DNA of 64,000 nucleotides from Prolixibacteraceae bacterium (GTDB lineage: Bacteria > Bacteroidota > Bacteroidia > Bacteroidales > Prolixibacteraceae): assembly GCA_031421065.1 (NCBI GenBank), contig JANONW010000288.1, forward strand, positions 2,993 to 66,992, written 5' to 3'. The position numbers and the translations under genes are program-made. The notes beneath the pieces were generated by a model. That model was not told where the DNA came from, made no database searches, and worked only from the letters and a program-made list of their open reading frames with translations. Numbering within the stretch: the stretch's first letter is position 1; every line of letters begins with the position of its first letter. Shown one piece after another: positions 6,432-30,290 of the stretch.

Positions 6432-7733
6432 ATGAAAACAAAAATTGGGATCTTAGTTTTGGCTTTAAGCACAAGCTTCTTCAGTTTGCAGGCACAACGC
6501 ACAGTAACTACAGCTCGTGCAGCAAGTTACGACATAAGCGACAACCTCGACTTGGATGCAGTAGCTTCCATTTTCGGCGATTCAGAAAATCTGGAAGACT
6601 TTGAACGCAGGCTGAACGATCCGGATAACCGGATTTCAAACCTCGACCTGAACGAAGATGGATATATCGACTACCTGCGGGTACTCGAAAATTCATCCGA
6701 CCGCAATTCGCTGGTCGTTGTTCAGGCAGTTCTGGATGAAGCTGTTTATCAGGACGTTGCAACCATTGAAATTGAAAGGGTACAGAACGGAAATCCGCGT
6801 GTACAAATTGTTGGCGACTCTTATATCTATGGTTCAAATTATATCATCGAACCAATGTATGTTCGCACACCGTTGATTTTCTCTTTTTTCTGGAGCCCAC
6901 GATACATTACCTACCATTCGCCATACTATTGGGACTATTATCCAAGTTGGTACAGTTATTACAGGCCTTATTCTCCGTTTAGATATCAAAGGCATGTACA
7001 TGTTCATGTTAACAGGTATAATACATACCATCGTTCAACTACCCGTAATATTTATTTTTCAGGAGACAATTACAATCGCATCCGGAGAAGCGATTACGCA
7101 TCGAGGTATCCTAACCGTACTTTTGAGGGCCGGAATGCAGGTGTAAAAAATCGATATGAACTGGACCAAAGAAGGCCAAACAACCAGGCGAATCGTCAGC
7201 GAGGCAATGATGTGCAGCGGTCAAATAACCGTCAGTATCAGGACAACAGCAAGACAAATTCAGGAAGGAACGAAAGACAAAGGAATGTAATTGAAAACAG
7301 ACGCCCGGGATCGAATGTACAGCCGGAGACCAATCAAACACGGACAAGAGATAACAGCAATGTTAATTCGGCCCAAAAAAGGTCAGGTTCTGCTAATGGT
7401 CCAGTGCAGATGAAGTCAGGCAGCAAAAATGAAGGCAGTTCTGTTTCGAGGAGTCAATCTGCACCAACACAGAACAGATCTGCAAATCAGGTTCAATCGG
7501 CTAAAAGATCTACTGATTCGCGAAGCCAATCAGTTTCAAAACCAACGCCAAACAGATCGCAAAATCAGGTTGGATCACCTCAAAGAAGTTCTGCTCCGAG
7601 AGAAAAATCAGGTTCTGTATCCAGTCAGAGCAGGTCAAACACACAAGTAAAACAAGCTCCGCAAAGTAACAGGAAATCTGAATCACCAAGAAGTGAGGAT
7701 AAAAAAGAAACCGATAACAGCAGAAGAAGATAA
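6432..7733 (+). CDS. Secreted hypothetical protein with a Dx[DN]xDG Ca-binding-like loop, Tyr/Trp/Pro-rich linker and long R/N/S/Q disordered tail
   Basis: Signal peptide MKTKIGILVLALSTSFFSLQA; DLNEDGYIDY; low-complexity C-terminal ~220 aa. Confidence 0.8.
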   Translation: MKTKIGILVLALSTSFFSLQAQRTVTTARAASYDISDNLDLDAVASIFGDSENLEDFERRLNDPDNRISNLDLNEDGYIDYLRVLENSSDRNSLVVVQAVLDEAVYQDVATIEIERVQNGNPRVQIVGDSYIYGSNYIIEPMYVRTPLIFSFFWSPRYITYHSPYYWDYYPSWYSYYRPYSPFRYQRHVHVHVNRYNTYHRSTTRNIYFSGDNYNRIRRSDYASRYPNRTFEGRNAGVKNRYELDQRRPNNQANRQRGNDVQRSNNRQYQDNSKTNSGRNERQRNVIENRRPGSNVQPETNQTRTRDNSNVNSAQKRSGSANGPVQMKSGSKNEGSSVSRSQSAPTQNRSANQVQSAKRSTDSRSQSVSKPTPNRSQNQVGSPQRSSAPREKSGSVSSQSRSNTQVKQAPQSNRKSESPRSEDKKETDNSRRR

Positions 7734-11557: not shown

Positions 11558-11584
11558 CAATTAAGTTTTAATTTTTGATCTTTG

Positions 11585-11592
11585 TATCTTTC
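11585..11592 (+). promoter_or_regulatory. Possible -7 promoter box for the Fe-S flavoprotein gene
   Basis: TATCTTTC, one mismatch to TAnnTTTG, 36 bp upstream of ATG 11629. Confidence 0.35.
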
Positions 11593-11628
11593 GGGTCAAA
11601 TATCAATATCCATAAATAGAAAAAGAAA

Positions 11629-13191
11629 ATGATAAAACTCACAATAGATAATCAAACCATTGAGGTTCAGCCCGGCACTTCTGTATGGCAGGCTGCCCAT
11701 TCCCTTGGCATCGAAATACCAACTATGTGTTATCTTGAAGGAACTGAACATTTTACATCGTGCATGATCTGTCTGGTAAAAGACACAAAAAATGGAAGAT
11801 TTTTCGCATCCTGTTCCACTCCGGTTTTTGATGGACAATCGATCATTACCAACGATGAAGAAACCATCGAATCGCGGATAGCTGCTCTCGAATTGCTCCT
11901 CAGCGAACATGTTGGCGACTGTGAAGCCCCCTGCCAGTTGGTTTGTCCGGCACACATGAACATTCCGCTGATGAACCGGCTGATTGCCAAAGGCGATTTT
12001 GCCAAGGCACTCGAAGTGGTTAAACGTGATATTGCGTTGCCTTCCATTCTTGGGCGAATTTGTCCGGCTCCGTGCGAGGCGGGCTGCCGACGGAAACAGG
12101 TTGACGAAGCAGTTTCGATTTGTTTATTGAAACGATTTGTGGGCGATGAAGATTTGAAAAGTGGGAAACCTTATCAGCCTCAACTAATTGAACTTTCAGG
12201 CAAAAAAGTAGCTATTATTGGTGCCGGCCCTGCTGGATTGGCTGCCGCGTATTACCTTCAGCAAAAAGGTCATCAGTCAGTAATTTTTGAAAAAGATGAT
12301 CGTGCTGGGGGTGAATTGCTTCAGATTGACACTGAAATTTTACCAAATGAAGTAGTTGAGGAGGAAGTTGCTCAAATTTTGGCAACCGGAGTTCAAATCT
12401 ACCTGAATGAATCCATTGACAACAACCGTTTTATTGAATTACAAAAGGATTTTGATGCTGTTGTTGTAGCCAGTGGAACAGTTTCAGAAGGAAGTTTGGC
12501 ATTCGGGCCAAAGACAGCCAAAGCAGGAATTATTGCTGACAAAAGCAGTTACCTGACATCAATTCCAAAAGTTTTTGCAGTTGGGAACTCGCTTCGTGCA
12601 TCGAAACTCGCTGTCCGATCAGTTGGTCAGGGAAAAGAGGTGGCAACTGTTATCGATAATTATTTTAAAACCTCGGAAGTAAAAGGATATCCGGAGCGGT
12701 TCAATTCAAAATTCGGACGACTGTCTGAAATTGAGTTCATTGAATATCAGAAAGATTCGGAAACTGCACCACGACAAAAAGCTGGTAAAGAAGGTTTCAC
12801 CCGCGAAGCTGCCATCCGCGAGGCCAAACGGTGCATGCATTGCGATTGCCGAAATCCGGAATCTTGTGTGTTACGCGAATTATCTGACCGTTACCATGCT
12901 GTGCAGAAACGCTTTCAGAGCGACCAACGCTTGAATGTAGAGAAGTTTATACACCGCGAGGGAATTGTTTACGAACCGGCCAAGTGCATCAAATGTGGCA
13001 TCTGTGTTCGTTTGACACGGCAGCATCAGGAAGAATTTGGTTTTACCTTTATTGGCCGCGGCTTCGATGTAAAAGTAGGCGTTCCGTTTAACCAAAGCGT
13101 TCAAAAAGGATTGGAGAAAACAGCACAAATCGTGGCAAAAGCTTGTCCGACTGGGGCGTTGGCGATGTTTGAGGTGGAGGAACAGTTGTAG
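11629..13191 (+). CDS. Fe-S flavoprotein: NuoG/HydA-type 2Fe-2S domain + GltD-like Fe-S/FAD module + C-terminal Fe-S domain
   Basis: PTMC..SCMIC..ASC; DCEAPCQLVCP; GRICPAPCEAGC; GAGPAG; CMHCDC..SC; CIKCGIC..CPTGAL. Confidence 0.85.
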   Translation: MIKLTIDNQTIEVQPGTSVWQAAHSLGIEIPTMCYLEGTEHFTSCMICLVKDTKNGRFFASCSTPVFDGQSIITNDEETIESRIAALELLLSEHVGDCEAPCQLVCPAHMNIPLMNRLIAKGDFAKALEVVKRDIALPSILGRICPAPCEAGCRRKQVDEAVSICLLKRFVGDEDLKSGKPYQPQLIELSGKKVAIIGAGPAGLAAAYYLQQKGHQSVIFEKDDRAGGELLQIDTEILPNEVVEEEVAQILATGVQIYLNESIDNNRFIELQKDFDAVVVASGTVSEGSLAFGPKTAKAGIIADKSSYLTSIPKVFAVGNSLRASKLAVRSVGQGKEVATVIDNYFKTSEVKGYPERFNSKFGRLSEIEFIEYQKDSETAPRQKAGKEGFTREAAIREAKRCMHCDCRNPESCVLRELSDRYHAVQKRFQSDQRLNVEKFIHREGIVYEPAKCIKCGICVRLTRQHQEEFGFTFIGRGFDVKVGVPFNQSVQKGLEKTAQIVAKACPTGALAMFEVEEQL

Positions 13192-13216
13192 AAATATTTC
13201 TTCGCTTAACCCGGTT

Positions 13217-13241
13217 GGCTTGTTTTAACAAACAGCCTTTT
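13217..13241 (+). terminator. Possible intrinsic terminator
   Basis: ggct(t)gttt-taac-aaacagcc followed by tttt. Confidence 0.4.
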
Positions 13242-13442
13242 AGTTGATCTTTCAGGTCCTTTTTTGTCTATAAATCAATCTTGTTTACAGCAATTCATTT
13301 ATACTTCAATTTAATTAGATGCTTGATAAATATTTCAAAATTTAATTTTATTAACAAATTTGATACTGTGAATTAATCAATTCGTAAGTTTTATAAAAAG
13401 GGTTTACTATTTTTATAGCTTATTAATGAAAAAAAATCGCCA

Positions 13443-14552
13443 ATGGTTTTAAATAGACTTCTGATAATCCTATTAATAAACATACTCCTTTCAGGCTTCC
13501 TTTCCGCCCAATCTTCCTGGTCCATATTTCGTGGCAACCAACAACTTTCAGGAACAACTTCAGCCAATCTTCCGGATAGACCGAAATTACTTTCCTCGTT
13601 TCAGACCGGTGACGACATTAAAGCTTCACCTGTTATTTCAGGACAAACCATCTTTTGTGGATCGACTGATGGCAGTATGTATGCCATAGGTTTTGATGGC
13701 AAACAAAAATGGAAATTCGATTCAGGGAACGCCATTGAAGCTCCTGCTTTGGTCATGGACGGTTCTGTTGTTTTCGGTTCACTCGATGGAATGTTTTTCA
13801 GGCTCGATGAAAAAACCGGGAAACAAATCTGGAAATATACCACAGACAATCAAATTATGGGTTCGGCAAACTGGCTGAAAGTAGGCAATCAAATCCGACT
13901 GGTGGTTGGCAGTTACGATTACAGCCTGCATGCTGTTGGTTTTGCCAAGGGCGACAGCATCTGGCAATACGAATCGGATAATTACATCAATGGGGCTCCG
14001 GCCATTTATGGTAAAAATGCTGTATTTGGTGGCTGCGATGGTTTTGTCCATTTGGTGAACATCGAGACAGGTAAAGTGTTTAAAAAGATCAAACTCGATA
14101 CTTATGTTGCTTCATCACCGGTGATTGATGGAAAGTTTGTTTATGTAGGTGATTACGAAGGCCGGTTTTTCAGCATCGATCTGGAAGGCGGTAAAGTTGC
14201 CTGGACGTATGATGATCCGGAGAAAAACCTGCCATTTATTGCATCACCGGCCTTGAGCGGAAACATGATCGTAATCGGCAATCAAGACCGGTTTATTTAC
14301 TGTTTTGATAAAAGCACGGGGAAAGTGGTTTGGAAAGTAAGAACCAGTAGCCGTGTAGAATCATCATCGGTAATTGCATCAGGAAAAGTAATTACCGGAA
14401 CCATGGACGGAATGCTGTACATTCACGACCTGAAAACCGGCAAAGAACTTTGGAAATACGAATTGGGCAGCCCGATCATAGGCAGTCCGGCAGTTGTTTC
14501 AGGAAAAATTGTGGTTGGGGCCGGCGATGGGAGGATTTACGTGTTTGGATGA
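13443..14552 (+). CDS. Secreted PQQ-like/BamB-like beta-propeller repeat protein
   Basis: Signal peptide; repeated 'SP.v....v.vG..dG..y.ld..tGk..Wky' blades with Trp-docking motif. Confidence 0.88.
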   Translation: MVLNRLLIILLINILLSGFLSAQSSWSIFRGNQQLSGTTSANLPDRPKLLSSFQTGDDIKASPVISGQTIFCGSTDGSMYAIGFDGKQKWKFDSGNAIEAPALVMDGSVVFGSLDGMFFRLDEKTGKQIWKYTTDNQIMGSANWLKVGNQIRLVVGSYDYSLHAVGFAKGDSIWQYESDNYINGAPAIYGKNAVFGGCDGFVHLVNIETGKVFKKIKLDTYVASSPVIDGKFVYVGDYEGRFFSIDLEGGKVAWTYDDPEKNLPFIASPALSGNMIVIGNQDRFIYCFDKSTGKVVWKVRTSSRVESSSVIASGKVITGTMDGMLYIHDLKTGKELWKYELGSPIIGSPAVVSGKIVVGAGDGRIYVFG

Positions 14553-14720
14553 AGCCCTCCCAAACCCCAAAGCCCCACCCAAACCCTCCCCGAAGGGGGA
14601 GGGCTTTAAAACGCAACTTTGAAAAGTATCTCAACTATATAAGTGAATAATATGGAACAGAGCATTTTTACTCTCCCCCTCCGGGGGGAGCTGGAGGGGG
14701 CTTTGGAAGGGGGAGGCCTT
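14553..14720. repeat. Inverted doublet of C/G-run REP-like palindromes (REPIN/BIME-like)
   Basis: Left unit aagccccacccaaaccctccccgaagggggagggcttt (14570-14607); right unit ctctccccctccggggggagctggagggggctt (14671-14703) in inverted orientation; same layout at 39079-39210. Confidence 0.75.
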
Positions 14721-16022
14721 ATGAAAATCGCACAAATAATCCCGGGGTCGGGCGGTAGTTTTTACTGCGGAAACTGTATGCGCGATAGTAAATTCGTGAA
14801 GGCACTGAAAGATTTAGGTCATCAGGTGATTAAAGTGCCATTGTACTTGCCCATTTTCGGTGATGCCCACGATTTGGACGAAGTTCCTGTTTTTTACGGA
14901 GCGGTAAACCTCTACCTCAAACAGCAATTCCCCATTTTTCGGCACATGCCCGCGTTTGTAGAACATGCGCTTGACTCGAAAAGTGTGTTGGAAATGGCAG
15001 CCCGAAAGGCCGGTTCAACCCGGGCTAAAGGTCTGGAAGAAATGACGATTTCAATGTTGCTGGGCGAAGATGGCGGCCAGAAAGAGGAGCTGGAACGCTT
15101 AGTTGATTGGCTGGCCGATGAGGCCAAACCTGATGTCGTACATTTGTCGAATGCTTTGCTGCTGGGTTTGGCCCACCGCATTAAAGAACGGATGAATGTT
15201 ACGGTTGTTTGTTCGCTTCAGGACGAAGATGTGTGGGTGGATGCCATGGAAGATAAGTATCGTAAAGAAGTTTGGGACTTGATGAGCAAACGCGGTCGTG
15301 ATGTGGATGTGTTTGTTCCGGTAAGCGATTTTTATTCCGCAGAAATTCACAAACGGATGGTCATTCCTGAAACCAAAATGAAAACGGTTCATTTGGGAGT
15401 CGATACCTCGGATTATTCCCCGAAACCAATTTCCGAAAAAGAGACTGTAATAGGCTACTTATCCAGAATGTGCGAAGAAAACGGGCTGGCTATTTTTGTT
15501 GACGGCTTTATTTTACTTCGGAAAGATCCAAAATTTTCAGCAGTAAAACTGAAAATTACCGGTGGCAAAACGGGTGACGATTTACATTTCATCAAAGAAC
15601 AAAAGCAGAAGCTTTCGAAAGCTGGGTTGGAAGCCGATGTGTCTTGGGTAGAAGAATTTGAAGGCGAGGAGCGCCAGAAATTCTTCGATTCGGTCCGAAT
15701 GATTTCGGTTCCGGTATTGAATGGCGAAGCTTTTGGTTTGTATATGCTCGAAGCCATGGCTGCCGGAATTCCGGTGGTTCAGCCTGCTTTGGGAGCTTTT
15801 CCCGAAGTAATTGAAATCAGTGGCGGCGGGGCAATCTATTCGCCCAATGAACCGCAGCAGTTGGCTGATGCACTGGCATCGCTCATTTTGAATGACCAAA
15901 AACTTCAGGAATTAAGCTTTGCCGGGCTTGCCGGAGTGAAAGCCCATTTCGATATTCATGCCCAGGCTCGCAAGATGGTGGCGGTGTATGAAGGCGCATT
16001 AAAAAATGTAGTCATTCCGTGA
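14721..16022 (+). CDS. Glycosyltransferase family 4 (GT-B) with N-terminal CxxC; start moved to ATG 14721
   Basis: MKIAQIIPGSGGSFYCGNC; EAFGLYMLEAMAAGIPVV (GT4 E-x7-E); the track's N-terminal extension is translated REP DNA. Confidence 0.88.
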   Translation: MKIAQIIPGSGGSFYCGNCMRDSKFVKALKDLGHQVIKVPLYLPIFGDAHDLDEVPVFYGAVNLYLKQQFPIFRHMPAFVEHALDSKSVLEMAARKAGSTRAKGLEEMTISMLLGEDGGQKEELERLVDWLADEAKPDVVHLSNALLLGLAHRIKERMNVTVVCSLQDEDVWVDAMEDKYRKEVWDLMSKRGRDVDVFVPVSDFYSAEIHKRMVIPETKMKTVHLGVDTSDYSPKPISEKETVIGYLSRMCEENGLAIFVDGFILLRKDPKFSAVKLKITGGKTGDDLHFIKEQKQKLSKAGLEADVSWVEEFEGEERQKFFDSVRMISVPVLNGEAFGLYMLEAMAAGIPVVQPALGAFPEVIEISGGGAIYSPNEPQQLADALASLILNDQKLQELSFAGLAGVKAHFDIHAQARKMVAVYEGALKNVVIP

Positions 16023-16100
16023 AAAGTAAAAATAAAAATCGAAGGGACCTATCCTTTGCCGTCTGCTTTAGCTGACGGACATGATTATAAAATAAAACTT

Positions 16101-16781
16101 ATGCTATTAAAACTTACCCAAATAACCAAATCTTATTTTTCCGGAAACAATCCGACAGCAAGAACGATTCTCGACCAGCTTGATCTGGAAATTAAGTCAG
16201 GTGAGCGGATTGCCATTGTCGGGCCTTCGGGCTCGGGCAAAACCACTTTGCTGAATCTGATTGGCACTTTGGATCGTCCTGATTCAGGGGAAATGTACTT
16301 CGAAAATCAAGATCTGTCGGTGTTTTCTGATCAGCAACTGGCCGGGTTCCGTAATGAGAAAATCGGGTTTGTGTTCCAGCTTCATCATTTATTACCTCAA
16401 CTCACTTTACTTGAGAATATACTTTTGCCGACTTTGACAGATAAAAAACTTCAGGGAAAGGAAACGCTTGAGCGTGCTCAGAAATTGATTTCACGGATGG
16501 GACTGACCGATGCCGCACACCAGAAACCTTCGGAACTTTCGGGCGGCGAATGTCAGCGGACTGCCGTTGCCCGTGCGCTGATCAACCGCCCGGGACTGAT
16601 TTTGGCCGATGAACCAACTGGTGCCCTCGATCAGAAATCGGCCTTCAATTTGACAGATTTGCTCGTTGAACTAAATCAGGAAGAAGGAGTTACCCTGATT
16701 GTTGTGACTCACTCGATGGAAGTAGCGAAAAAAATGGATCGGATTTATAGCTTGAATGAAGGAAAACTTATAGAGTCTTGA
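16101..16781 (+). CDS. ABC transporter ATP-binding protein, LolD/MacB-like; start moved to ATG 16101
   Basis: Walker A GPSGSGKT, signature LSGGECQR, Walker B ILADEPTG, VTH. Confidence 0.93.
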   Translation: MLLKLTQITKSYFSGNNPTARTILDQLDLEIKSGERIAIVGPSGSGKTTLLNLIGTLDRPDSGEMYFENQDLSVFSDQQLAGFRNEKIGFVFQLHHLLPQLTLLENILLPTLTDKKLQGKETLERAQKLISRMGLTDAAHQKPSELSGGECQRTAVARALINRPGLILADEPTGALDQKSAFNLTDLLVELNQEEGVTLIVVTHSMEVAKKMDRIYSLNEGKLIES

Positions 16782-17081: not shown

Positions 17082-20000
17082 ATGTCGCTATCCAAACTCA
17101 TACTGAAATCTGCCTGGTTCTACCGGAAACTGAACCTGACTATTATCCTCGGAATTGCTTTAAGCACGGCCATTCTGGTTGGTGCGCTCATCATTGGCGA
17201 TTCGGTGAAATACAGTTTGCAGCAAATCACGGTTCAGCGGCTAGGCAAAACTTCCCAGGTGATTACCGCTGGAGAACGTTTGTTCGGGCAGCAGTTGACC
17301 ATAGAATTGGCCACAAAAACAGGAGTTGTAACCACCGCTTTGCTTCGTGCCAATGGTTTCGGGGTAATCGATGGTGGCGAACTGCGGATCAATCAGTTGG
17401 CTGTCTGGGGTGTAGATTCAACGTTGGGCCGTTTTGCCAATGGTTCAGAATCCTTTATTCTGAATGGAAATGACGTAGCTATAAACGAAAATCTGGCTGC
17501 TTTATCTGGGTTGAAAGTGAACGATGAATTTTTGCTTCGATTGAATAAACTCAATACTTTCCCGGCCAATACGCCTTTTGTTTCAGAAACGGAAACCACA
17601 ATTTCTTTCAGGGTTTCGGTGGCACGAATCCTGAAATCCGAGGAATTGGGGAATTTCAATTTACAAAACATTCAATCCGCGCCGCGCAACGTTTTCCTGA
17701 ATTTGCAATGGCTCAACGAGCAAATGGGACTTCAGCAAAAAGCCAATGTGTTGCTCGTTGCCGAAGGTATTTCAAGTTCAGAACTGATTCAGAAACTTCA
17801 GAAAAGCTGGAAGCTGGAAGACATGAACCTGGAAATCAGGGAAAATCAAACCTTGAATTACACCGAACTGATTTCTGACCGTGTGTTTGTTGAACCGGCG
17901 GTTGAGCAATTTTGCCTGAACAAAATGCCCGGTTCACAGGCTGTTTTCAGCTATTTCATCAACGAATTTACTTTGAAGGGAAAGCAAACGCCGTATTCGT
18001 TTGTCTCGTCCGATCCAAAGCTAACAGGAAATCAAATAATAGCCAGTAATTGGCTGGCCGATGATTTGAAGATAAAATTGAACGATACCGTCCGGCTTTC
18101 TTATTTTGAAGTTGGGCCGTTGCGACGACTGGTTTTGAAGGACACTTCGTTTGTAGTCGGGCATATTTATGAATTGGCAGGGGAAAAGGCCGATCAGAAC
18201 CGGATGCCGGTGATTCCGGGGCTTTCGGATGCGGGCAATTGCCGCGACTGGAAAACCGGTGTGCCTGTTGATCTGAAAAAGATCCGCACCAAAGACGAAG
18301 ATTATTGGAAGGCGCACAAAGGAACTCCGAAAGCTTTTGTCTCGCTCGAAACGGCACAAAAACTCTGGGGGAACCACTTTGGACAATCAACGGCAATTCG
18401 TGTTGACGGACTAAAAAAAGCTGAATTTGAAAGCCAACTTCTTTCAGGACTTAACCCTTCGCAGCTTGGCTTCGAGGTTCGGGATGTAAAAACCGATGGA
18501 CTCGCGGCTGCCAGCGGGGGAACCGATTTTGGAGGACTGTTTATTGGGCTCAGCTTCTTTGTGCTGTTCGCTGCGGTGTTGCTGGCTTTCCTGTTGTTCA
18601 AACTGTACCTCGGATTTCGCAAAACTGAAATCGGAACCTTGACAGCACTCGGATTTTCGTTTCAAACTATTCGCAAACTTTTTGTTGCCGAAGCTTCGGT
18701 ATTTGTGCTGGTCGGTATTTTTCTCGGAATTCCGTTCAGCATTCTATACAACCACCTGATTTTACAAGCCATCAATACCATTTGGGTCGATATTGTCCGT
18801 ACCTCGATTGTCAACATTCACATTCGTCCGGTTTCGCTTATTTTCGGAAGTCTGATTATCGCACTGATGTCATTCACTGCGATTTGGTTCATCCTGAGCC
18901 GTTTCCTGAAAAACGAAGCGATTGCCTTGCAACGAAAACATATCTCAGTAAAACTTAATAACGGGCGATGGTCCCTGAGCCTTGGCCTTTGCCTGATCGC
19001 TTTTTCTGTTATCATCCTGTTCGCGAAAGGTTTCCGGAGTGGTGAAATTAATCCGGAGTTCTTTTTCATCAGCGGTTTCGGACTGTTGCCGGGACTGATC
19101 CTGATTTTCGATTTCTGGATGCACCGATTGGCTGTTCAGGAAAAAGCCATGCATTTTTCGCTGCAGACCATGCTGCTGAAACGCATTGCCGGAGAACGGC
19201 GGCGCAATGTGATGATCGTGAGTTTTCTGTCAGTGGGCGTGTTTATGGTGGTTTCTACCGGATTGAACCGCAAAGACCTGACTTCAAATGCCGATTTGCC
19301 TTCATCGGGAACGGGCGGGTATGACTACTTTGTGGAAACGACCATGCCGGTGCTTTTTGATGTGAACACTCCAAAGGGAAGGGAAGATTTTGATATACCT
19401 GCCGATGCGCAGATTGTGCAGTTTCAGGCTCAGCCGGGCGATGATGCCAGTTGCCTGAACCTGAACCGAATTTCGCGGCCACGTTTGATTGCCTGCAATC
19501 CGGCGGCTTTCGACCAGCGATCGGCATTTACGTTTGCCACGCGGACGGACGATCTGGATGCGCAACATCCGTGGCTGACACTCAACCAGACTTTGGCTGA
19601 CGATGTGATTCCGGCCATTGCCGACCAAACGGTGATTCAGTGGGGATTAATGAAAAAAGTGGGCGACACGCTGCTTTATAAAACGGAAGACGGAAAAGAT
19701 TTGAAGCTGAAACTGGTGGGCGGACTGGCCAATTCGGTTTTTCAGGGCAATGTGATTATTGCCGAAGATCATTTCAACCGGGCATTTCCATCGGTAAGCG
19801 GCTCGAATGTATTCCTGATTGATGTGCCCTACAGTTCGTTGACTGCCGAAGATTTGCAAATCGGAATGCGCAACTATGGCCCCGAAATCAGCCGGACAAC
19901 CGACCGTTTGCTGTCTTTTTACACGGTTGAAAATACTTATCTGAATATCTTCCTGATGCTTGGTGCGCTTGGACTTTTAATCGGCACACTTGGATTGGGA

Positions 20001-20315
20001 ATTTTAATTTTTCGCATCACTTTTGAGCAGATTCCTGAATACGCGTTACTGCTGTCGTTGGGTTTTTCCAAACCAATTATTCAGCGGTTGGTGATGCGCG
20101 AAAAGCTTTTCCTGATGATTGTTTCCGTCCTGATTGGCCTGATTCCAGCCGTATTGAGCGGCCTGCCCACACTGATTTCTTCGCTCTACCCAAACCTGTG
20201 GGTTTGGCTTCCCGCTATTTCTGTTCTGGTGATTTTAAGCGGTGCCGTGTTTAGTTTTGTGGCTATTCGGATGGCTTTCAGGCAGAATTTGGTACAGGCT
20301 ATGAGGAATGAATAA
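17082..20315 (+). CDS. Large type VII (MacB/FtsX-like) ABC permease with two periplasmic domains
   Basis: TM + large periplasmic domain + 3TM unit duplicated; RKTEIGTLTALGFS and QIPEYALLLSLGFS FtsX-type motifs. Confidence 0.88.
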   Translation: MSLSKLILKSAWFYRKLNLTIILGIALSTAILVGALIIGDSVKYSLQQITVQRLGKTSQVITAGERLFGQQLTIELATKTGVVTTALLRANGFGVIDGGELRINQLAVWGVDSTLGRFANGSESFILNGNDVAINENLAALSGLKVNDEFLLRLNKLNTFPANTPFVSETETTISFRVSVARILKSEELGNFNLQNIQSAPRNVFLNLQWLNEQMGLQQKANVLLVAEGISSSELIQKLQKSWKLEDMNLEIRENQTLNYTELISDRVFVEPAVEQFCLNKMPGSQAVFSYFINEFTLKGKQTPYSFVSSDPKLTGNQIIASNWLADDLKIKLNDTVRLSYFEVGPLRRLVLKDTSFVVGHIYELAGEKADQNRMPVIPGLSDAGNCRDWKTGVPVDLKKIRTKDEDYWKAHKGTPKAFVSLETAQKLWGNHFGQSTAIRVDGLKKAEFESQLLSGLNPSQLGFEVRDVKTDGLAAASGGTDFGGLFIGLSFFVLFAAVLLAFLLFKLYLGFRKTEIGTLTALGFSFQTIRKLFVAEASVFVLVGIFLGIPFSILYNHLILQAINTIWVDIVRTSIVNIHIRPVSLIFGSLIIALMSFTAIWFILSRFLKNEAIALQRKHISVKLNNGRWSLSLGLCLIAFSVIILFAKGFRSGEINPEFFFISGFGLLPGLILIFDFWMHRLAVQEKAMHFSLQTMLLKRIAGERRRNVMIVSFLSVGVFMVVSTGLNRKDLTSNADLPSSGTGGYDYFVETTMPVLFDVNTPKGREDFDIPADAQIVQFQAQPGDDASCLNLNRISRPRLIACNPAAFDQRSAFTFATRTDDLDAQHPWLTLNQTLADDVIPAIADQTVIQWGLMKKVGDTLLYKTEDGKDLKLKLVGGLANSVFQGNVIIAEDHFNRAFPSVSGSNVFLIDVPYSSLTAEDLQIGMRNYGPEISRTTDRLLSFYTVENTYLNIFLMLGALGLLIGTLGLGILIFRITFEQIPEYALLLSLGFSKPIIQRLVMREKLFLMIVSVLIGLIPAVLSGLPTLISSLYPNLWVWLPAISVLVILSGAVFSFVAIRMAFRQNLVQAMRNE

Positions 20316-21206: not shown

Positions 21207-22631
21207 TTATTCAGGACAAAGATAATCATCCACTTTCGCAGCGGCAATTTTTCCGGCTTCGATCGCACGAACGACAAGGCTGGCACCAGCTTCAATGTCG
21301 CCGCAGGCAAATACTTTTTCAATGGAAGTCTGCTTTTTGGCGTTCACTTTAACATTTCCACGTGAATCGTATTCAATACCTAATTGATCGAGCAAACCGT
21401 TGTGTGCAGGCTGGGTAAAGCCCATCGAAAGCAGCACTATATCGAAATCCATTGTTTCAGACGTTCCGGGAACCTCTGTCATTACCCAACGTCCTGATTC
21501 ATCTTTTCCCCATTCAACGCCCACAAGTTCAACTTGCTTAAGCTGACCATTCTCGCCGATCATCTTTTTGGTAGATAAACTCCAGCGGCGCTCACAACCT
21601 TCCATGTGCGAGCTCGAAGTGCGCAGTGTAGCTGGCCAGTAAGGCCATGGGTTGTTATCAGCACGTTTCGCTGTTGGTTTTGGGAGAATTTCTATCTGTG
21701 TAACGCTTCTCGCCTTTTGACGAATGGAAGTACCCACGCAATCGGAACCAGTGTCGCCACCTCCGATTACAAGCACCCGTTTATCTTTTGCGGTAATACT
21801 TATTTCTTCAGGAATAACTTCGCCGGCAATTCGTTTGTTTTGTTGCATCAAAAATTCCATTGCAAAATGAACACCTTTCAGTTCGCGGCCTTCAACGGGT
21901 AAATCGCGTGCCTGTTCGGCGCCATTGGCCAAAACCACCGCATCAAAATTCGCCAGCAATTCTTCGCGGGTGATGTCGGTACCAACAACTACGTTGGGTC
22001 TAAAAATGATCCCTTCATCAAGGAAAATTGCCAAACGACGATCGATTACGGTTTTGCTTAATTTAAAATCAGGAATTCCAAAACGCAGCAAACCACCAAT
22101 CGCTTTATTTTTCTCAAAGACAGTCACTTCATGGCCGGCCTGATTTAACAGATCGGCCACTGAAAGCCCGGCAGGCCCAGAGCCAACTACTGCGACTTTT
22201 TTACCAGTACGCACTTCAGGAATACGTGGCTGCACAAATCCAAGATTGAAAGCATGCTCAACAGTGGATGCTTCGTTTTCACGAATGGTTACAGTTTCGT
22301 CATGAATTGCCAGTACACAGGCTTTTTCGCAGGGAGCAGGACAAACTCGGCCTGTAAATTCGGGGAAACTGTTGCTCGAATGCAATACTTCGTAAGCGCC
22401 TTTCCAGTCAGCTTTGTAAACCAGATCCTGCCATTCCGGAATTTTACTTCCGACAGGACAGCCCCAGTGGCAAAAATGAACACCGCAATCCATGCAGCGC
22501 TCAGCCTGTTCTTTACGGTCTTTGTCGTCGAGTGTTTGCTCTACTTCACTGTAGTCGTATATTCTGTCATTCAGCGGACGATAACCTGCTTCTTTTCGTC
22601 CTATTGTCATGAAACCTTTTGGATTTCCCAT
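21207..22631 (-). CDS. gltD: Glutamate synthase small subunit
   Basis: RCMDCG..FC..GCP, TGRVCPAPCE, GSGPAG, GGGDTG, FACGD. Confidence 0.97.
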   Translation of the reverse strand: MGNPKGFMTIGRKEAGYRPLNDRIYDYSEVEQTLDDKDRKEQAERCMDCGVHFCHWGCPVGSKIPEWQDLVYKADWKGAYEVLHSSNSFPEFTGRVCPAPCEKACVLAIHDETVTIRENEASTVEHAFNLGFVQPRIPEVRTGKKVAVVGSGPAGLSVADLLNQAGHEVTVFEKNKAIGGLLRFGIPDFKLSKTVIDRRLAIFLDEGIIFRPNVVVGTDITREELLANFDAVVLANGAEQARDLPVEGRELKGVHFAMEFLMQQNKRIAGEVIPEEISITAKDKRVLVIGGGDTGSDCVGTSIRQKARSVTQIEILPKPTAKRADNNPWPYWPATLRTSSSHMEGCERRWSLSTKKMIGENGQLKQVELVGVEWGKDESGRWVMTEVPGTSETMDFDIVLLSMGFTQPAHNGLLDQLGIEYDSRGNVKVNAKKQTSIEKVFACGDIEAGASLVVRAIEAGKIAAAKVDDYLCPE

Positions 22632-22654: not shown

Positions 22655-25600
22655 TTATTCCTGATGCCTTGGATTGTCTTCTGTCAACTGAAGTTTTTTC
22701 TCCAGCTCACGCAGCTTCAGTTCTTCAAGTACTTTCTTATACTCGAACGGAATTACCTTGACAAATTTTGGAAGGTATTCGTCCCAGTTTGTAAGAATTT
22801 TTGCAGCCATGGTGCTTTGTGTGTATAACAGATGTTTGTTAATCAGGTCCTGTAATTCAACAATATCAGCTTTGTCTTCAACTGGGCCAAGCTCAACCAG
22901 TCCTTTGTTGCAGAAATATTCGAAATTGCCTTCCTCATCGAGTACATAAGCAATACCACCGCTCATCCCGGCAGCAAAGTTACGTCCGGTAGTACCTAGG
23001 ACAACCACTCGCCCGCCGGTCATGTATTCGCAGCAATGGTCGCCGCTTCCTTCAATTACCGTTTTTGCTCCTGAATTCCGCACACAGAAACGTTCACCGG
23101 CCACACCGCGGATAAATGCTTCTCCTGAAGTTGCACCGTAGAAAGAAGTATTTCCGACGATGATATTTTCTTCAGGATTAAAAGTTGTACCAACCGGTGG
23201 AACTACAATAATACGCCCTCCTGAAAGCCCTTTGCCAATATAGTCGTTGCAATCGCCTTCCAAACGGAAACTCAATCCTTTTACAAGGAAAGCGCCGAAA
23301 CTTTGCCCGGCAGTTCCTGTAAAATTAGCCATGATCGTGTTGTTCGGCAATCCTTCTTCACCATAGCGCCTCGAAATTTCGCCCGACAACATGGCGCCAA
23401 CTGTCCGGTCAACATTGGTAATGGTATGCGACAACCAAACTTTTTCCTTGCTCTTTATGGCTTTGTTTGCTTCCCTGATGAGCGAATGATCCATGTGGTC
23501 CTCAACCGATTTAATATTTGGAAACGTATTGTGTATGTCGTGATGCTTGGCTTCTTCAGGCATGAAAATCACCTTCGAAAAGTCCATTTTTTTCATCTTC
23601 CAGTTCAATACATCGTTGTTCTGTTCCAGTAAATCTGCACGGCCAACAATTTCTTCGAAGGTCGTATAACCAATTTCAGCAAGATGTTCGCGAACTTCGG
23701 TGGCAATAAACCGGAAGAAATTGATGGTATATTCCGACCGGCCTATGAACCGTTTGCGCAGTGTTTCATCTTGGGTAGCGATACCGGCAGGACAAGTATT
23801 CAGGTGGCATTTCCGCATCATGATACAGCCCAAAGTAATGAGGGCTGATGTTGAAAACCCGAATTCTTCGCCACCGAGCATTCCCATGATCACCACATCG
23901 CGGCCTGTTTTAAGCTGACCATCAACCTGTAATTTTACTCTACCCCGTAAGTTGTTCATTACCAATGTTTGCTGTGCTTCGGCAATACCCAATTCGGCTG
24001 GCAATCCGGCAAATTTTATCGAGCTGGCCGGACTTGCGCCTGTACCGCCTTCGCAACCTGCAATGATAATTATATCGGAGAAAGCTTTTGCAACCCCGGC
24101 AGCAATGGTACCTACCCCATTTTCGGCAACCAGTTTTACCGAAACTTTTGCTCTCGGGTTGGTTACTTTCAGGTCGTAGATCAACTGGGCCAAATCCTCA
24201 ATCGAATAAATATCGTGATGTGGCGGAGGAGAAATCAGGGTAATTCCGGGAGTTGAATTCCGGAGTTTCGCAATAATATTATTGACCTTAAATCCTGGCA
24301 ACTGACCTCCTTCACCCGGTTTTGCGCCTTGTGCAATTTTAATCTGCAACTCGTCGGCATTGATCAGGTAATTGTTGGTTACCCCAAACCTACCCGATGC
24401 AACCTGTTTGATGGCGCTTCGTTTGTTGGTGCCAAAACGTTCGGCATCTTCACCGCCTTCGCCGGTATTGCTTCGTCCGCCAATGGTATTCATAGCAACA
24501 GCCAGAGCCTCGTGGGCTTCTTTACTGATTGATCCGTACGACATGGCGCCGGTAACAAAACGTTTCATGATACTTTCGACAGGTTCTACCAGCGAAATAT
24601 CAATCGGGTTCCGTTTGTATTTCAGGCAACCGCGTATAAAGGTTGGTTTTGCATTTTCGGTATCCACCAATTTTGTGAATTCCTTGAATACGCTGTAATC
24701 GTTGGTGCGGGTCGCCCATTGCAGTAATCCAATTGTTTCAGGATTCCAGGCATGATGTTCGCCGTATTTCCGGTAATGGTAAGTCCCGGCACTCTCAAAA
24801 TTATTATTGACCAGGTGTTTCTTTTTTCCGTAAGCTTCCTTGTGGAACAAAAGCGATTCCAGGCAAATTTCTTCGAACCCCATTCCTCCAAATTTAGAAG
24901 CAGTTCCAGTGAAATATTTAGCAATAACTTCATTGCTTATGCCCAATGCTTCAAATATCTGGCACCCCTGATAACTGCGAAGTGTTGAGATTCCCATTTT
25001 GGACATCACTTTCAGCAGACCTTTATCAATTGATTTGATATAATTGTGGCGGGCTTCTGAATATTTCATATTAATCTGACCGCTTTTCACCATATCGTCG
25101 ATGGCCGCAAAAGCCAGATAAGGGTTCACTGAGCTGGCTCCATAGCCAAACAACAGGGCAAAATGCGCAATCTCACGTGCTTCGCCCGTCTCAACAATAA
25201 TCCCGATCTGCATTCTTTTCTGGGTTTGGATCAGGTGATGGTGAACCGCAGCAACCGCCAGCAATGATGGAATGGGCGCATATTCTGCCGAAACATTCCT
25301 GTCTGACAGAATGATAAAATTTTTGTGGTCATCCACCGCTTTTTCGGCTAGTTTCAGCAAATCGTCAAATGCCTTTTGAAATCCTTCAACACCATCTTTC
25401 ACCGGAAATACCATAGGTAATGTGGAGTGAGAGAACTGTTCGTGTTTCAGGTCTTTGATTTTTCCGAGGTCGGTATTGGTAATGATCGGATCGGTGAATT
25501 TGATCAGTCTGGCATGTATTGGCGATTCGTCCAGAATATTGGAGTGCAGCGAACCGATGTAATTTGTAAGCGACATCACCAAACCTTCGCGGATGGAGTC

Positions 25601-27181
25601 GATTGGCGGATTGGTAACCTGTGCAAATACCTGACGGAAATAATCGAAGAAACGATGTGGTTTTTCGGAGAAACATGCCAGTGGCGTATCGTTACCCATC
25701 GAGCTGGTAGGCTCTACTGCTGAAACGGCCATCGGGGCAATAATCATTTCCATGTCCTCTTTCGAATAGCCAAATACTTTCGCCAAGGTATTAAACTGAT
25801 CGCCAAGCGATGAAGGGACACGCTGTTTTACTTCAATATCGTCCATCACCAAACGATTTTCCTTCAGCCAGTTACCGTAAGGATTGCGGGAGCTCAACTG
25901 TGCTTTTACTTCTTTGTCAGGAATAATTATGCCCAGTTTGGTATCGACCAGCAGTATTTTCCCAGGGCGCAAACGGCCCTTTTCTTTAACATCTTCAGCA
26001 GCGAAAGTTTGAACCCCCACTTCTGAACCCATCACGATCATATCGTTTTTGGTAATGATGTATCTTGAAGGGCGTAATCCGTTGCGGTCAAGTGTTCCGC
26101 CAATGTAACGGCCATCAGAAAAAACCATAGAGGCCGGGCCATCCCATGGTTCCATAATGGTTGAATGGTATTCGTAAAAAGCCTTCAGGCTGTCAGGAAT
26201 CGGGTTTTTAGAGTTAAATGATTCAGGAATCATCATGCACAATACATGCGGAACAGAACGCCCTGTCTGATGCAGAAATTCGAGCGTATTGTCGAAAGAA
26301 GCAGAGTCGGATTTATTGGGCTCAATGACAGGATACAGTTTTTTCAGGTCGTCACCAAAAACTTCCGATTTCAGCAGTGCTTCACGGGCTTGCATCCACA
26401 TGCGGTTGCCTTTTATCGTATTGATCTCGCCGTTGTGGGCTATCATGCGGAATGGCTGAGCCAAATCCCATGTCGGGAAAGTATTGGTGCTGAACCTTGA
26501 ATGTACCAAAGCAATGGCGCTCGTAAATTTCGGGTGGGCAAGGTCTTTAAAATAATCCCTCAACTGACCGGGAGTTAACATTCCCTTGTAAATAATGGTT
26601 TTTGAAGATAAACTCGGGATATAAAATGCGCCCCTGGTTTTCAGTTTTGATTCCCGTATTTCCTTTTCTGCCTGTTTGCGGGCAAGGTATAATTTCTGTT
26701 CAAGCACATCCTGTTCCAGATCGGCTTTCACAAATATTTGCCTGACATAAGGTTCTGTCAGTTTTGCGATTTCGCCCGGGGCGGAGCTGTCAACAGCCAC
26801 ATCGCGGTATTCTATCAGTTCAAGACCTTCCTGTTTGATATACTTGCTTAAAATATCCTGACAGATATTGGCCTCCTCCTTATCGTGAGGAAGAAAAATC
26901 AATCCTGTTCCGAACTTACCTGAAGCCGGAATATTCACCTTCAAAACTTCCTTGATATATTGATCAGGTATTTGCATCAAAATACCGGCACCGTCACCAG
27001 TTTTATTGTCAGAACCGGTAGCGCCACGGTGATCCATATTTTCAAGAACCTCTAATCCCCGTTCGATAATTTCATGCGATTTTTGCCCCTTAATGTGGGC
27101 AACAAATCCAATTCCGCAATTATCGTGCTCATTGGCTGGATCGTACAACCCCTGCGCTTTTGGATATCCTATGCTCATCAT
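22655..27181 (-). CDS. gltB: Glutamate synthase large subunit
   Basis: HDNCGIGF (Ntn Cys), HSRFSTNT, QGAKPGEGG, CHLNTCP 3Fe-4S region, GERFCVRNSG. Confidence 0.98.
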   Translation of the reverse strand: MMSIGYPKAQGLYDPANEHDNCGIGFVAHIKGQKSHEIIERGLEVLENMDHRGATGSDNKTGDGAGILMQIPDQYIKEVLKVNIPASGKFGTGLIFLPHDKEEANICQDILSKYIKQEGLELIEYRDVAVDSSAPGEIAKLTEPYVRQIFVKADLEQDVLEQKLYLARKQAEKEIRESKLKTRGAFYIPSLSSKTIIYKGMLTPGQLRDYFKDLAHPKFTSAIALVHSRFSTNTFPTWDLAQPFRMIAHNGEINTIKGNRMWMQAREALLKSEVFGDDLKKLYPVIEPNKSDSASFDNTLEFLHQTGRSVPHVLCMMIPESFNSKNPIPDSLKAFYEYHSTIMEPWDGPASMVFSDGRYIGGTLDRNGLRPSRYIITKNDMIVMGSEVGVQTFAAEDVKEKGRLRPGKILLVDTKLGIIIPDKEVKAQLSSRNPYGNWLKENRLVMDDIEVKQRVPSSLGDQFNTLAKVFGYSKEDMEMIIAPMAVSAVEPTSSMGNDTPLACFSEKPHRFFDYFRQVFAQVTNPPIDSIREGLVMSLTNYIGSLHSNILDESPIHARLIKFTDPIITNTDLGKIKDLKHEQFSHSTLPMVFPVKDGVEGFQKAFDDLLKLAEKAVDDHKNFIILSDRNVSAEYAPIPSLLAVAAVHHHLIQTQKRMQIGIIVETGEAREIAHFALLFGYGASSVNPYLAFAAIDDMVKSGQINMKYSEARHNYIKSIDKGLLKVMSKMGISTLRSYQGCQIFEALGISNEVIAKYFTGTASKFGGMGFEEICLESLLFHKEAYGKKKHLVNNNFESAGTYHYRKYGEHHAWNPETIGLLQWATRTNDYSVFKEFTKLVDTENAKPTFIRGCLKYKRNPIDISLVEPVESIMKRFVTGAMSYGSISKEAHEALAVAMNTIGGRSNTGEGGEDAERFGTNKRSAIKQVASGRFGVTNNYLINADELQIKIAQGAKPGEGGQLPGFKVNNIIAKLRNSTPGITLISPPPHHDIYSIEDLAQLIYDLKVTNPRAKVSVKLVAENGVGTIAAGVAKAFSDIIIIAGCEGGTGASPASSIKFAGLPAELGIAEAQQTLVMNNLRGRVKLQVDGQLKTGRDVVIMGMLGGEEFGFSTSALITLGCIMMRKCHLNTCPAGIATQDETLRKRFIGRSEYTINFFRFIATEVREHLAEIGYTTFEEIVGRADLLEQNNDVLNWKMKKMDFSKVIFMPEEAKHHDIHNTFPNIKSVEDHMDHSLIREANKAIKSKEKVWLSHTITNVDRTVGAMLSGEISRRYGEEGLPNNTIMANFTGTAGQSFGAFLVKGLSFRLEGDCNDYIGKGLSGGRIIVVPPVGTTFNPEENIIVGNTSFYGATSGEAFIRGVAGERFCVRNSGAKTVIEGSGDHCCEYMTGGRVVVLGTTGRNFAAGMSGGIAYVLDEEGNFEYFCNKGLVELGPVEDKADIVELQDLINKHLLYTQSTMAAKILTNWDEYLPKFVKVIPFEYKKVLEELKLRELEKKLQLTEDNPRHQE

Positions 27182-27544
27182 CTTTATTTTTTAATATTTT
27201 GTTTTCACAAAAAGCTTACATATCATCAGTTTAAAAATCATTTTGAACGAATCAATCAACAAATACCGAGAAATTATAAGCAAATCAATCTTTTTTCTTA
27301 CGAACTGAAAGCGAAAGTAGTTATTTTTATAGAAAGTTCAAATTCTGTAACACCAGGGGAATTGATAAATTCAGGCGACCGTGAAAGAAAAGTTTCATTA
27401 ATCACATACAAACCACTTCATATCAACACCTTAAAGATGCAATCCAAACAATTATTCTTATCATGTCAAAATCAATAAATAACGATAAATTAACAAATCC
27501 TGATTTTAGTGAAATCCAGATTGTCCTCGGACTGGAAACAACAT

Positions 27545-28882: not shown

Positions 28883-28905
28883 AGTGCATAAGTTTTTTGA
28901 AGTTT

Positions 28906-28913
28906 CAAAGATA
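28906..28913 (-). promoter_or_regulatory. -7 promoter box for argH
   Basis: TATCTTTG on the minus strand, 23 bp upstream of the ATG. Confidence 0.55.
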
Positions 28914-29100
28914 AATCAAAATAGGGTTTTATGCATTTCAAGTGGATTTTTATTAAAAACGCCCCTGTTTTTTAATGTAGGTCTGATTTTAAGATGAAAA
29001 TTTCTTCCAACCCAAATATTAGGTTTTCAGTAATATATTGTAACTTGCACGAGAACATTGAAGCAAATATGTTACTGTCTATTCCTTAAAAACACTCATT

Positions 29101-30060: not shown

Positions 30061-30083
30061 TCTATGCAATTTCCACAAAATTC

Positions 30084-30118
30084 AAAACCTCCAAAGTTCT
30101 CAAAACATTGGAGGTTTT
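30084..30118 (+). terminator. Terminator/REP-like hairpin after the AKR gene
   Basis: aaaacctccaa...ttggaggtttt followed by further T. Confidence 0.65.
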
Positions 30119-30192
30119 TTTTATGCCCCTTCTACGATCCTGATTTCCTCATCGGTGACAGCGATTCAGCTCGAAAATAATTTAGTTGAATA

Positions 30193-30290
30193 ATGAACTA
30201 CTCCGCCGCAAGCGGACGGAGTATCAACCCCAAAAAGCAAAAACAAGATACGCCGCAAGCGGCCGGGGAATTAACCCAAAAGAGATTAAA
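30193..30290. mobile_element. Non-autonomous palindromic element with two CCGCAAGCGG hairpins (IS200/IS605-end-like)
   Basis: tactccgccgcaagcggacggagta and gatacgccgcaagcggccggggaattaacccaaaagagattaaa; no transposase present. Confidence 0.55.

Follow-up and report, generated by a model that had tools for sequence, protein, structure and literature searches.

The window considered here is a stretch of 64,000 nucleotides (nt) from a Prolixibacteraceae bacterium of the Bacteroidota (GenBank assembly GCA_031421065.1, contig JANONW010000288.1, positions 2,993 to 66,992 of the forward strand). On its plus strand, it carries an open reading frame (ORF) of 520 residues, uninterrupted from position 11629 to position 13191 and referred to below as the target, whose product is an iron–sulfur (Fe-S) flavoprotein of the BfuA type. 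The closest characterized relatives of this protein are NfnA and StnC, subunits of the transhydrogenases NfnABC and StnABC. The target is an NfnA reduced to its electron wire and its flavin adenine dinucleotide (FAD) domain, with the pocket for nicotinamide adenine dinucleotide phosphate, NADP(H), and the Fdh-like domain both missing. The coordinates of the gene, its domains, and its conserved downstream neighbors are collected in Table 1.

Table 1. The target gene, the segments of its product, and the conserved genes downstream of it; positions are those of the window.
Feature	Positions	Strand	Residues and motifs	Match or basis
Target gene, NfnA/StnC-like (BfuA-type) Fe-S flavoprotein without NADP(H) subdomain and Fdh-like domain	11629..13191	+	520 residues	
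N-terminal NuoG/HydA-type [2Fe-2S] domain, cluster A1	11629..11853	+	1–75; C34/C45/C48/C62	Pfam Fer2_4, E 3.6e-15
NfnL/GltD/DPD-type two-[4Fe-4S] region	11908..12162	+	94–178; H94, C98, C102, C106, C145, C149, C153, K168	Pfam Fer4_20 at 98–178, alignment to 9bov_A
FAD-binding Rossmann segment	12202..12477	+	192–283; GAGPAG 198–203, acidic residue 221, GG 227–228, ends FDAVVVASG	
Connector in place of the NADP(H)-binding subdomain of NfnA and GltD (~140–170 residues)	12478..12555	+	284–309; 26 residues	
C-terminal FAD segment	12556..12672	+	310–348; TSIPKVFAVGN, Asn at the usual GD-motif Asp	
CxxCxCx5C motif, one further [4Fe-4S] on the NfnA-type path	12832..12867	+	C402/C405/C407/C413	Motif shared with StnC and NfnA in the alignment
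NuoG/Nqo3 N4-type [4Fe-4S] ferredoxin-like domain	12973..13161	+	C453/C456/C459/C506-P507	Pfam Fer4_Nqo3 at 449–511
Exported PQQ-like beta-propeller, conserved downstream neighbor	13443..14552	+	369 residues; N-terminal signal peptide	
GT4 glycosyltransferase, conserved cluster member	14643..16022	+		
LolD/MacB-type ABC ATPase, conserved cluster member	16056..16781	+		
Double-FtsX permease, conserved cluster member	17082..20315	+	1077 residues; ~10 predicted transmembrane segments	

The target features a single GxGxxG motif—GAGPAG at residue 198—and a mere 26 residues between the FAD segments FDAVVVASG, which starts at residue 275, and TSIPKVFAVGN, which starts at residue 310, as counted by a motif script. 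The same script places CMHCDC at residue 402 and CxxCxxC...CP over residues 453–507. A sequence-only reading of the window had described these features—a lone Rossmann GxGxxG, an interval of about 30 residues between the FAD segments, and the two C-terminal Cys motifs—together with an N-terminal NuoG-type 2Fe-2S domain, which the Pfam match of Fer2_4 to residues 1–75 bears out. The Rossmann domain of residues 192–283 covers only positions 1–108 of the 291-position Pfam profile Pyr_redox_2. The NuoG profile TIGR01973 matches residues 4–98 only, and an NfnL-like insert of 300 residues separates the 2Fe-2S and N4-type motifs, which in NuoG/HydA belong to one contiguous module. The C-terminus falls right after the last Cys-Pro, whereas NfnA runs on for approximately 500 residues that make up its Fdh-like domain.

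Among PDB sequences, the target matches best to Caldicellulosiruptor NfnA from NfnABC (9bov_A, E 5.5e-82), Sporomusa StnC from StnABC (8oh5_C), and Thermococcus sibiricus NfnA (9n5u_A); every GltD comes far behind these three. The alignment to NfnA/StnC falls into two blocks: query residues 2–302 pair with chain residues 4–304, and query residues 296–511 pair with chain residues 447–671. Since the chain between residues 304 and 447 is skipped, the NADP(H) subdomain of approximately 140 residues is gone from the target, and the end of the target aligns with position ~671 of the 1178-residue chain 9bov_A. A structure prediction, which had been suggested along with the sequence-only reading, yielded a very confident AlphaFold2 model with 40 diverse relatives as input (pLDDT 94, pTM 0.91). 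The nearest folds in Foldseek are again NfnA/StnC chains, which take the top four places at a TMq of 0.85 (E down to 5.8e-44) and a TMt of just 0.39; GltD, NfnL, and DPD reach a TMq of ~0.4 only. The protein had been taken for a GltD-like flavoprotein with Fe-S domains added. Alignment and fold comparison replace this description with one in which the whole architecture is inherited from a BfuA of the NfnA/StnC type.

The electron path of NfnABC runs from FAD through the clusters A7, A6, A3, A2, and A1 to the flavobicluster in NfnB (PMC11829005). Cluster A7 of NfnA is bound by three Cys and one Lys; A4 and A5 lie off this path, as a dead-end branch within the Fdh-like domain (PMC11829005). The target residues C106, C145, C149, and K168 align with C108, C147, C151, and K170 of 9bov_A, which are the A7 ligands of Caldicellulosiruptor saccharolyticus NfnA. 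For the A6-like site of the target, the candidates for the fourth ligand are H94 and C165. In total, the five complete ligand sets—one for a [2Fe-2S] and four for [4Fe-4S] clusters—would fit A1, A2, A3, A6, and A7, as judged by alignment, and correspond to a predicted content of ~18 Fe in this subunit. The clusters A1 [2Fe-2S] and A2, by which a BfuA homologue of the Bfu family is recognized, are represented by C34/C45/C48/C62 with Fer2_4 and by C453/C456/C459/C506 with Fer4_Nqo3. Two features that mark the Nfn branch of this family are absent: the NADP(H)-binding subdomain beside the FAD part, the latter being present, and the C-terminal Fdh/NuoG-like domain.

The window itself contains a true GltD for comparison, encoded at positions 21207–22631 on the minus strand and adjoined by a 1508-residue ORF at 22655–27181, presumed to be gltB. 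This GltD scores 622.5 bits on TIGR01317 at a cut-off of 447.7 bits and features two GxGxxG motifs, one at residue 150 and one, GGGDTG, at residue 290. The interval between the equivalent FAD segments spans 197 residues and, as first read from the letters, holds the second domain with GGGDTG. The target reaches 142.9 bits on the same profile, over residues 97–290 only, and thereby falls outside GltD as defined by TIGR01317/TIGR01318; it does not lie beside gltB either, its neighbors being hemY upstream and the beta-propeller gene downstream. The best NCBIfam match of the target is PRK12814 (NF009454), at 386 bits against a cut-off of 916 bits. The annotations that members of the family commonly bear, 'NADPH-dependent glutamate synthase beta subunit-like oxidoreductase' and 'glutamate synthase', are wrong.

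The family of the target is large and intact. A word-indexed protein search yielded more than 100 clusters at 90% identity, nearly all of 520 residues and mostly labelled Prolixibacteraceae/Bacteroidota. An exhaustive search of representatives at 50% identity yielded more than 130 proteins of approximately 510–545 residues, each aligned end to end without a break, down to 37% identity. A genome scan provided 80 loci, namely the best matches to the family profile, with the labels Bacteroidota, Planctomycetota (Pirellulales, Phycisphaerae, Sedimentisphaerales), Verrucomicrobiota, Latescibacterota, Armatimonadota, Calditrichota, and Aminicenantes. Within the order of the Prolixibacteraceae bacterium, the target occurs in 39 of 301 sampled genomes with one copy each, and a further 400 genomes, sampled evenly over the phylum, gave no match at E 1e-110 or better; the family hence behaves as a patchy accessory gene.

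Conservation was quantified in an alignment of 120 family members from at least seven phyla. The 19 Cys/His positions examined as ligands all proved invariant or almost invariant: C34/C45/C48/C62, C402/C405/C407/C413, and C453/C456/C459/C506 are invariant, and the remaining sets are H94/C98/C102/C106 and C145/C149/C153. The A7-type Cys are invariant as well, and K168, which is aligned with the Lys ligand of A7, is kept in 98 members. The connector has a length of 27–28 residues in 99 members, and none of its positions reaches a conservation of at least 90%. The loss is thus shared by relatives, which answers the concern raised with the sequence-only reading that the deletion might be decay specific to this genome. 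A pseudogene is excluded by the conserved ligands, the GxGxxG, the connector length, and the many intact relatives. An insert of 138–173 residues at the connector is present in just six sequences (P0199, P0240, P0243, P0254, P0262, and P0269) out of 151 aligned ones, comprising 150 representatives and the target. A tree built without the insert columns is compatible with a single split into long and short forms—the constrained tree beat the free quick search, with a p-AU of 0.885—which is not proof of one event. Rare fusions occur in the family: P0134, P0148, and P0151 carry a second complete GltD-like module with Fer4 (1133 residues), a URO-D/MtaA-like domain (951 residues), and an exported propeller (867 residues), respectively.

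The flavin site shows two different patterns. The GxGxxG is kept in all 120 members, the acidic residue 221 at the end of the second Rossmann strand in 117, and GG227–228 in 117–118. The position of the GD-motif Asp varies, with N in 48, S in 35, D in 14, G in eight, and A in five members. As this Asp normally binds the ribitol of FAD, and as the flavin has lost its usual cover, the NADPH domain, the flavin site could be vestigial: the Rossmann domain would be a mere scaffold and the target a pure Fe-S wire between the NuoE-NuoF module described below and a further partner. This explanation is very unlikely, since the near-complete conservation of the dinucleotide-binding residues is hard to explain without a bound dinucleotide, and the Rossmann domain is modelled with high confidence.

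The near-constant neighbor and presumed partner of the target was found by clustering all ORFs of the 80 loci. It is a family of approximately 785 residues, which lies directly upstream of the target on the same strand in 73 of the 80 loci; the gap between both genes is at most 100 nt in 49 of 63 cases, and overlaps are frequent. The partner is a NuoE-NuoF (NuoEF) fusion with the following modules: a NuoE/HydC-like [2Fe-2S] thioredoxin-like domain; a further 2Fe-2S ferredoxin-like domain; the flavin mononucleotide (FMN)/NADH domain of NuoF; SLBB; NADH_4Fe-4S; and a C-terminal Fer4 dicluster. Its best PDB matches are NfnB (E 8.7e-206), StnB, and Csac NfnB, followed by HydB of bifurcating NiFe- and FeFe-hydrogenases, with NuoF of complex I far behind. 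Upon alignment to A. mobile HydB (7t2r_B), the segment GDPGAFMD covers A202 and M204 of the Bfu-specific residues; F182 could not be placed on the chain numbering. At the positions of the B2-site ligands C438/C476/H525/C531/C536, the partner carries C/T/H/C/C. The His of the B2 site is found in virtually all bifurcating BfuB and is absent from non-bifurcating homologues (Schut et al. 2022, PMC9304861). The complete BfuB/BfuC core of the Bfu family—FMN domain, SLBB, NuoF 4Fe-4S, dicluster, B2 His, and N-terminal 2Fe-2S—is present in the partner and absent from the target. In the order sample, 37 of the 39 target-bearing genomes also encode the NuoEF fusion (E 1e-230 or better).

The partner changes the picture of a conduit cut off from NAD(P)H, as which the target had been read. 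This picture stands for the target, which has no NAD(P)H-binding domain of its own, and falls for the pair, as the NuoEF partner brings an FMN/NADH site; NADH most likely enters there. The fusion of NfnC-like and NfnB-like parts may plausibly compensate for a lost clamp, the clamp domain being absent here. The genome carries additional genes of this kind on contig C56 at ~23000–32000 (loci L005, L006, and L088–L091), where two sets of HydA-like (587 and 598 residues), HydB-like (611 and 402 residues), and NuoE-like genes are found. These sets resemble two multimeric [FeFe]-hydrogenase-type or related Bfu-type clusters, and hence the organism has further NuoEF-type modules.

The pair of NuoEF fusion and target belongs to a gene cluster whose order is kept across phyla: propeller, propeller, NHL-repeat protein, Fer4 protein, NapH-like protein, large propeller, NuoEF fusion, target, small propeller, GT4, ABC ATPase, and double-FtsX permease. 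Among the 51 loci with at least 7.6 kb of upstream sequence, the NuoEF fusion is present in 48, the NapH-like protein, the Fer4 protein, and the large propeller in 47 each, and the NHL-repeat protein in 46. Among the 45 loci with at least 8 kb of downstream sequence, the propeller is present in 38, GT4 in 31, and the ABC ATPase and FtsX permease in 32 each. In this genome, the Fer4 protein has 17 Cys and an N-terminal RRRF twin-arginine (Tat) motif, the Tat signal having been checked in this copy only. The NapH-like protein of this genome features a signal-like N-terminus, approximately six hydrophobic segments, and Fer4_5 and Fer4 domains; its matches to NapH/NosR are weak (E 1e-9, 38 bits against a cut-off of 213). 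The large propeller begins with three hydrophobic segments, and the other propellers and the NHL protein carry signal peptides or anchors, except for one propeller ORF that is cut at the start of its stretch and shows neither. In this lineage only, an ORF6N-domain gene (phage-type regulator/antirepressor-like) lies between the Tat-ferredoxin and NapH-like genes (L093 7240–7761 in this genome; L008 2530–3072).

The small propeller downstream of the target was compared with 50 orthologues. Beyond the Gly and Trp positions of the repeats, GSYD at residues 156–159, GGCD at 196–199, Cys 198, and Cys 287 are kept in at least 46 of the 51 sequences. These motifs and the two Cys may be active-site or metal-site residues, which is too little to name a chemistry. 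In P0151, the target, a hydrophobic segment, and the small propeller form one read-through fusion. By its topology, this fusion would suit a complex apposed to the membrane; it occurs in one representative only and could be an assembly artefact.

On this evidence, the target is probably the BfuA-type subunit of a two-protein Fe-S flavoenzyme that derives from the NfnABC/StnABC (Nfn-Bfu) bifurcating transhydrogenases, with the NapH-like protein as the most likely candidate for a further partner at the FAD. The steps of the mechanism are given in order of decreasing confidence. First, the target and the NuoE-NuoF fusion would form an NfnABC-like complex. Second, NADH would be oxidized at the FMN of the NuoEF fusion, and ferredoxin would bind at its C-terminal dicluster. 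Third, electrons would travel along the five clusters of the target to or from its FAD. Fourth, and with the least confidence, the nicotinamide side of this FAD, uncovered by the loss of the NADPH domain, would serve a partner that is not a pyridine nucleotide; such a partner or substrate had already been proposed from the letters and is plausible. The preferred candidate is the NapH-like membrane Fe-S protein encoded in the same cluster, by way of its cytoplasmic face; it would link cytoplasmic NADH/ferredoxin to the Tat-exported polyferredoxin and the exported beta-propellers.

The main rival to a NapH-like partner is a soluble cytoplasmic enzyme of the Bfu type, whose exposed FAD acts on a small non-pyridine substrate or a small redox protein (quinone, disulfide, flavodoxin, or thioredoxin-like), the membrane and periplasmic genes being pathway neighbors that are not wired to it. 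The classification of Bfu enzymes follows the third substrate, which is H2, formate, NADPH, an aldehyde, or F420, and 17 BfuB clades have no assigned function (PMC9304861). A NuoEF fusion with full Bfu-type signatures would suit another member of a family defined by such a variable third substrate. The conservation of the FAD motifs beside a variable connector suggests an open site and not a new folded domain, and rare relatives are fused to cytoplasmic catalytic domains, URO-D-like in one case and a second complete GltD-like module in another. A soluble enzyme leaves unexplained why, in 47 of 51 loci, the pair is joined by the genes for the NapH-like protein and the Tat-ferredoxin, in an order that is fixed across phyla. 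In addition, the cluster showed no conserved gene that would encode a soluble substrate-binding partner, and the relative joined via a hydrophobic segment to an exported propeller would sit at the membrane. The soluble enzyme is considered unlikely, and the NapH-like protein is the preferred candidate.

The immediate upstream neighborhood of the target in the window differs from that of most loci. It reads hemA-hemC-hemD-hemB-hemL, a 433-residue gene, hemE, hemN, and a gene for a HemY-type protoporphyrinogen oxidase, after which the target follows at a distance of 71 nt. The 433-residue gene, at 6432–7733 on the plus strand between hemL and hemE, encodes a signal peptide, a middle part rich in Tyr, Trp, and Pro, and a long low-complexity tail rich in Ser, Arg, Asn, and Gln; it has no Pfam or NCBIfam match and is 78% identical to a gene in the same position in L007. 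The NuoEF fusion of this genome lies on another contig (C381:25334–27688), in the order four propellers, NHL protein, Tat-Fer4 protein, ORF6N-domain gene, NapH-like gene, large propeller, NuoEF fusion, and hemF. The latter (L093 13868–14755), encoding an oxygen-dependent coproporphyrinogen oxidase (Pfam E 1.2e-114), comes right after the NuoEF gene, with the contig end ~0.5 kb further on; the HemN encoded in the window is the oxygen-independent type. A close relative (L007/G001, 87% identity) shows this split between NuoEF and target as well. Such an arrangement would be expected if one heme block had been inserted between the NuoEF and target genes. No overlap was found between the ends of C381 and of C288, the contig of the window; in G001, the 2.6 kb that follow hemF gave no heme-protein match, and the contig shares no sequence match with the start of C288.

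Given this neighborhood, the target could serve anaerobic heme synthesis as an accessory, by accepting electrons from the HemY-type oxidase or by exchanging electrons, as donor or acceptor, with the radical-SAM enzyme HemN. To our knowledge, it is not settled what takes up the electrons of HemY-type enzymes under anoxia, which leaves room for such a role. The short distance to hemN-hemY and the hemF gene after the NuoEF partner speak for it, as does the 71-nt spacer (11558–11628), in which neither a terminator-like hairpin nor a plus-strand TAnnTTTG box (the Bacteroidota −7 element) was found. The AT-rich spacer of 251 nt between the target and the propeller gene (13192–13442) has no consensus match either, and scans for promoter and terminator consensus sequences around the target gave nothing above shuffled expectation; read-through from the heme operon into the target is possible, as judged by these scans. 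Across the family, heme genes lie upstream of the target in only three of the 80 loci, and the companions fixed in many genomes are the NuoEF fusion and the NapH-like gene. In a genome of the same genus (G477, target 83% identical), the NuoEF gene precedes the target at a gap of ~0.5 kb with no heme genes in between. The same junction holds unrelated inserts in other Bacteroidales: a GDSL lipase gene in L008 (8884–9966) and 12.5 kb of unrelated, non-heme genes in G685 (L105, C64). Hence, the heme linkage is a recent local rearrangement and no functional signature, and the junction behaves like an insertion-tolerant spot in an otherwise rigid cluster. A role in the heme pathway deduced from the hemN-hemY-target order is rejected on the neighborhood count and the arrangement in G477, and the heme accessory as a whole is extremely improbable. 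Cytochrome content as a reason for the linkage is ruled out by the lack of any CxxCH heme motif among the cluster proteins. The loci L016 and L025 hold 1.1–1.6 kb of unknown sequence at the NuoEF-target junction.

Several observations weigh against the two-protein enzyme with a NapH-like partner. The 80 loci, as best matches to the family profile, are no random sample. Approximately eight genomes of the order sample (G673, G557, G437, G420, G480, G668, G629, and G511) carry a NuoEF fusion that is 58–66% identical to the partner but no match to the target family at E 1e-100; in these genomes, the fusion may pair with a different BfuA-type subunit. In the genome of the window, the NuoEF gene is not adjacent to the target, and because of this, co-expression of the pair is unproven here. 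The loci of Planctomycetota often have no GT4 gene and no genes of the ABC/FtsX exporter, which leaves the upstream half of the cluster as the only universal companion. Since the residue in place of the GD-motif Asp varies, flavin binding may be altered. The statements on flavin content and complex formation, as well as those on bifurcation and on which way the electrons flow, are inferences. In addition, we know of no system in which electron uptake by a NapH-type protein from a cytoplasmic flavoprotein is established.

With these points taken into account, a broader proposal is put forward tentatively, at somewhat less than even confidence. The target would be the cytoplasmic end-piece of a membrane redox machine, in which a bifurcating-type NADH/ferredoxin module uses the bare FAD as docking or exit site to the NapH-like protein and passes low-potential electrons to the Tat-exported polyferredoxin and to exported beta-propeller enzymes in Bacteroidota, Planctomycetota, Verrucomicrobiota, and several candidate phyla. 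If this wiring is true, it would constitute a new, cytochrome-free route for cytoplasmic NADH/ferredoxin reducing power to the periplasm, present in many anaerobes of sediments and digesters and in planctomycetes, and it would provide a function for a large set of 'BamB-like/PQQ-like' propeller proteins. The family represents a natural experiment: an Nfn-type enzyme that has lost only the NADPH pocket and the dead-end Fdh-like domain and has retained the electron wire. A literature search found no description of this family or its gene cluster. The family is a variant within the Bfu family, on the Nfn branch, in an undescribed cluster context.

In GltD and the N-terminal modules of NfnL/DPD, as in the target, there are a Fer4_20 region with two clusters and an FAD Rossmann fold that carries GxGxxG. 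Unlike GltD, the target has no second Rossmann (NADPH) domain and features an extra 2Fe-2S domain and two further 4Fe-4S domains. Proteins of the PRK12814 type ('putative NADPH-dependent glutamate synthase small subunit', ~657 residues) come closer in architecture: like the target, they feature the N-terminal 2Fe-2S domain, NfnL-type clusters, FAD, and C-terminal Fe-S motifs and have no Fdh-like domain. In contrast to the target, they retain the NADPH insert of 138–173 residues.

The membrane part of the cluster resembles the NapGH, NosGH, and MauMN systems, in that neighboring genes encode a Tat-signal polyferredoxin and a polytopic Fer4_5 membrane protein. It differs from these systems in that its scores lie far below the family cut-offs, no genes for nitrate or N2O reductase lie nearby, and a cytoplasmic NADH flavoprotein and propellers are its companions.

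NfnA and StnC (PDB 9bov, 9bp5, 8oh5, and 9n5u; PMC11829005, PMC10482914, and PMC12018979) share the domain order of the target up to NfnA residue ~670, and the NuoEF partner is the closest relative of NfnB/StnB. The target differs from NfnA/StnC by a connector of ~27 residues in place of the NADP(H) subdomain of ~140 residues, and by the lack of the Fdh/NuoG-like domain of ~500 residues that carries A4 and A5. The NfnC-like and NfnB-like subunits, which are separate in NfnABC/StnABC, are one fused protein here. NADPH cannot be the third substrate of the target enzyme, unlike in NfnABC/StnABC. Finally, NfnABC and StnABC are encoded by stand-alone operons of three genes, whereas the genes of the target system are clustered with those of membrane and exported proteins.

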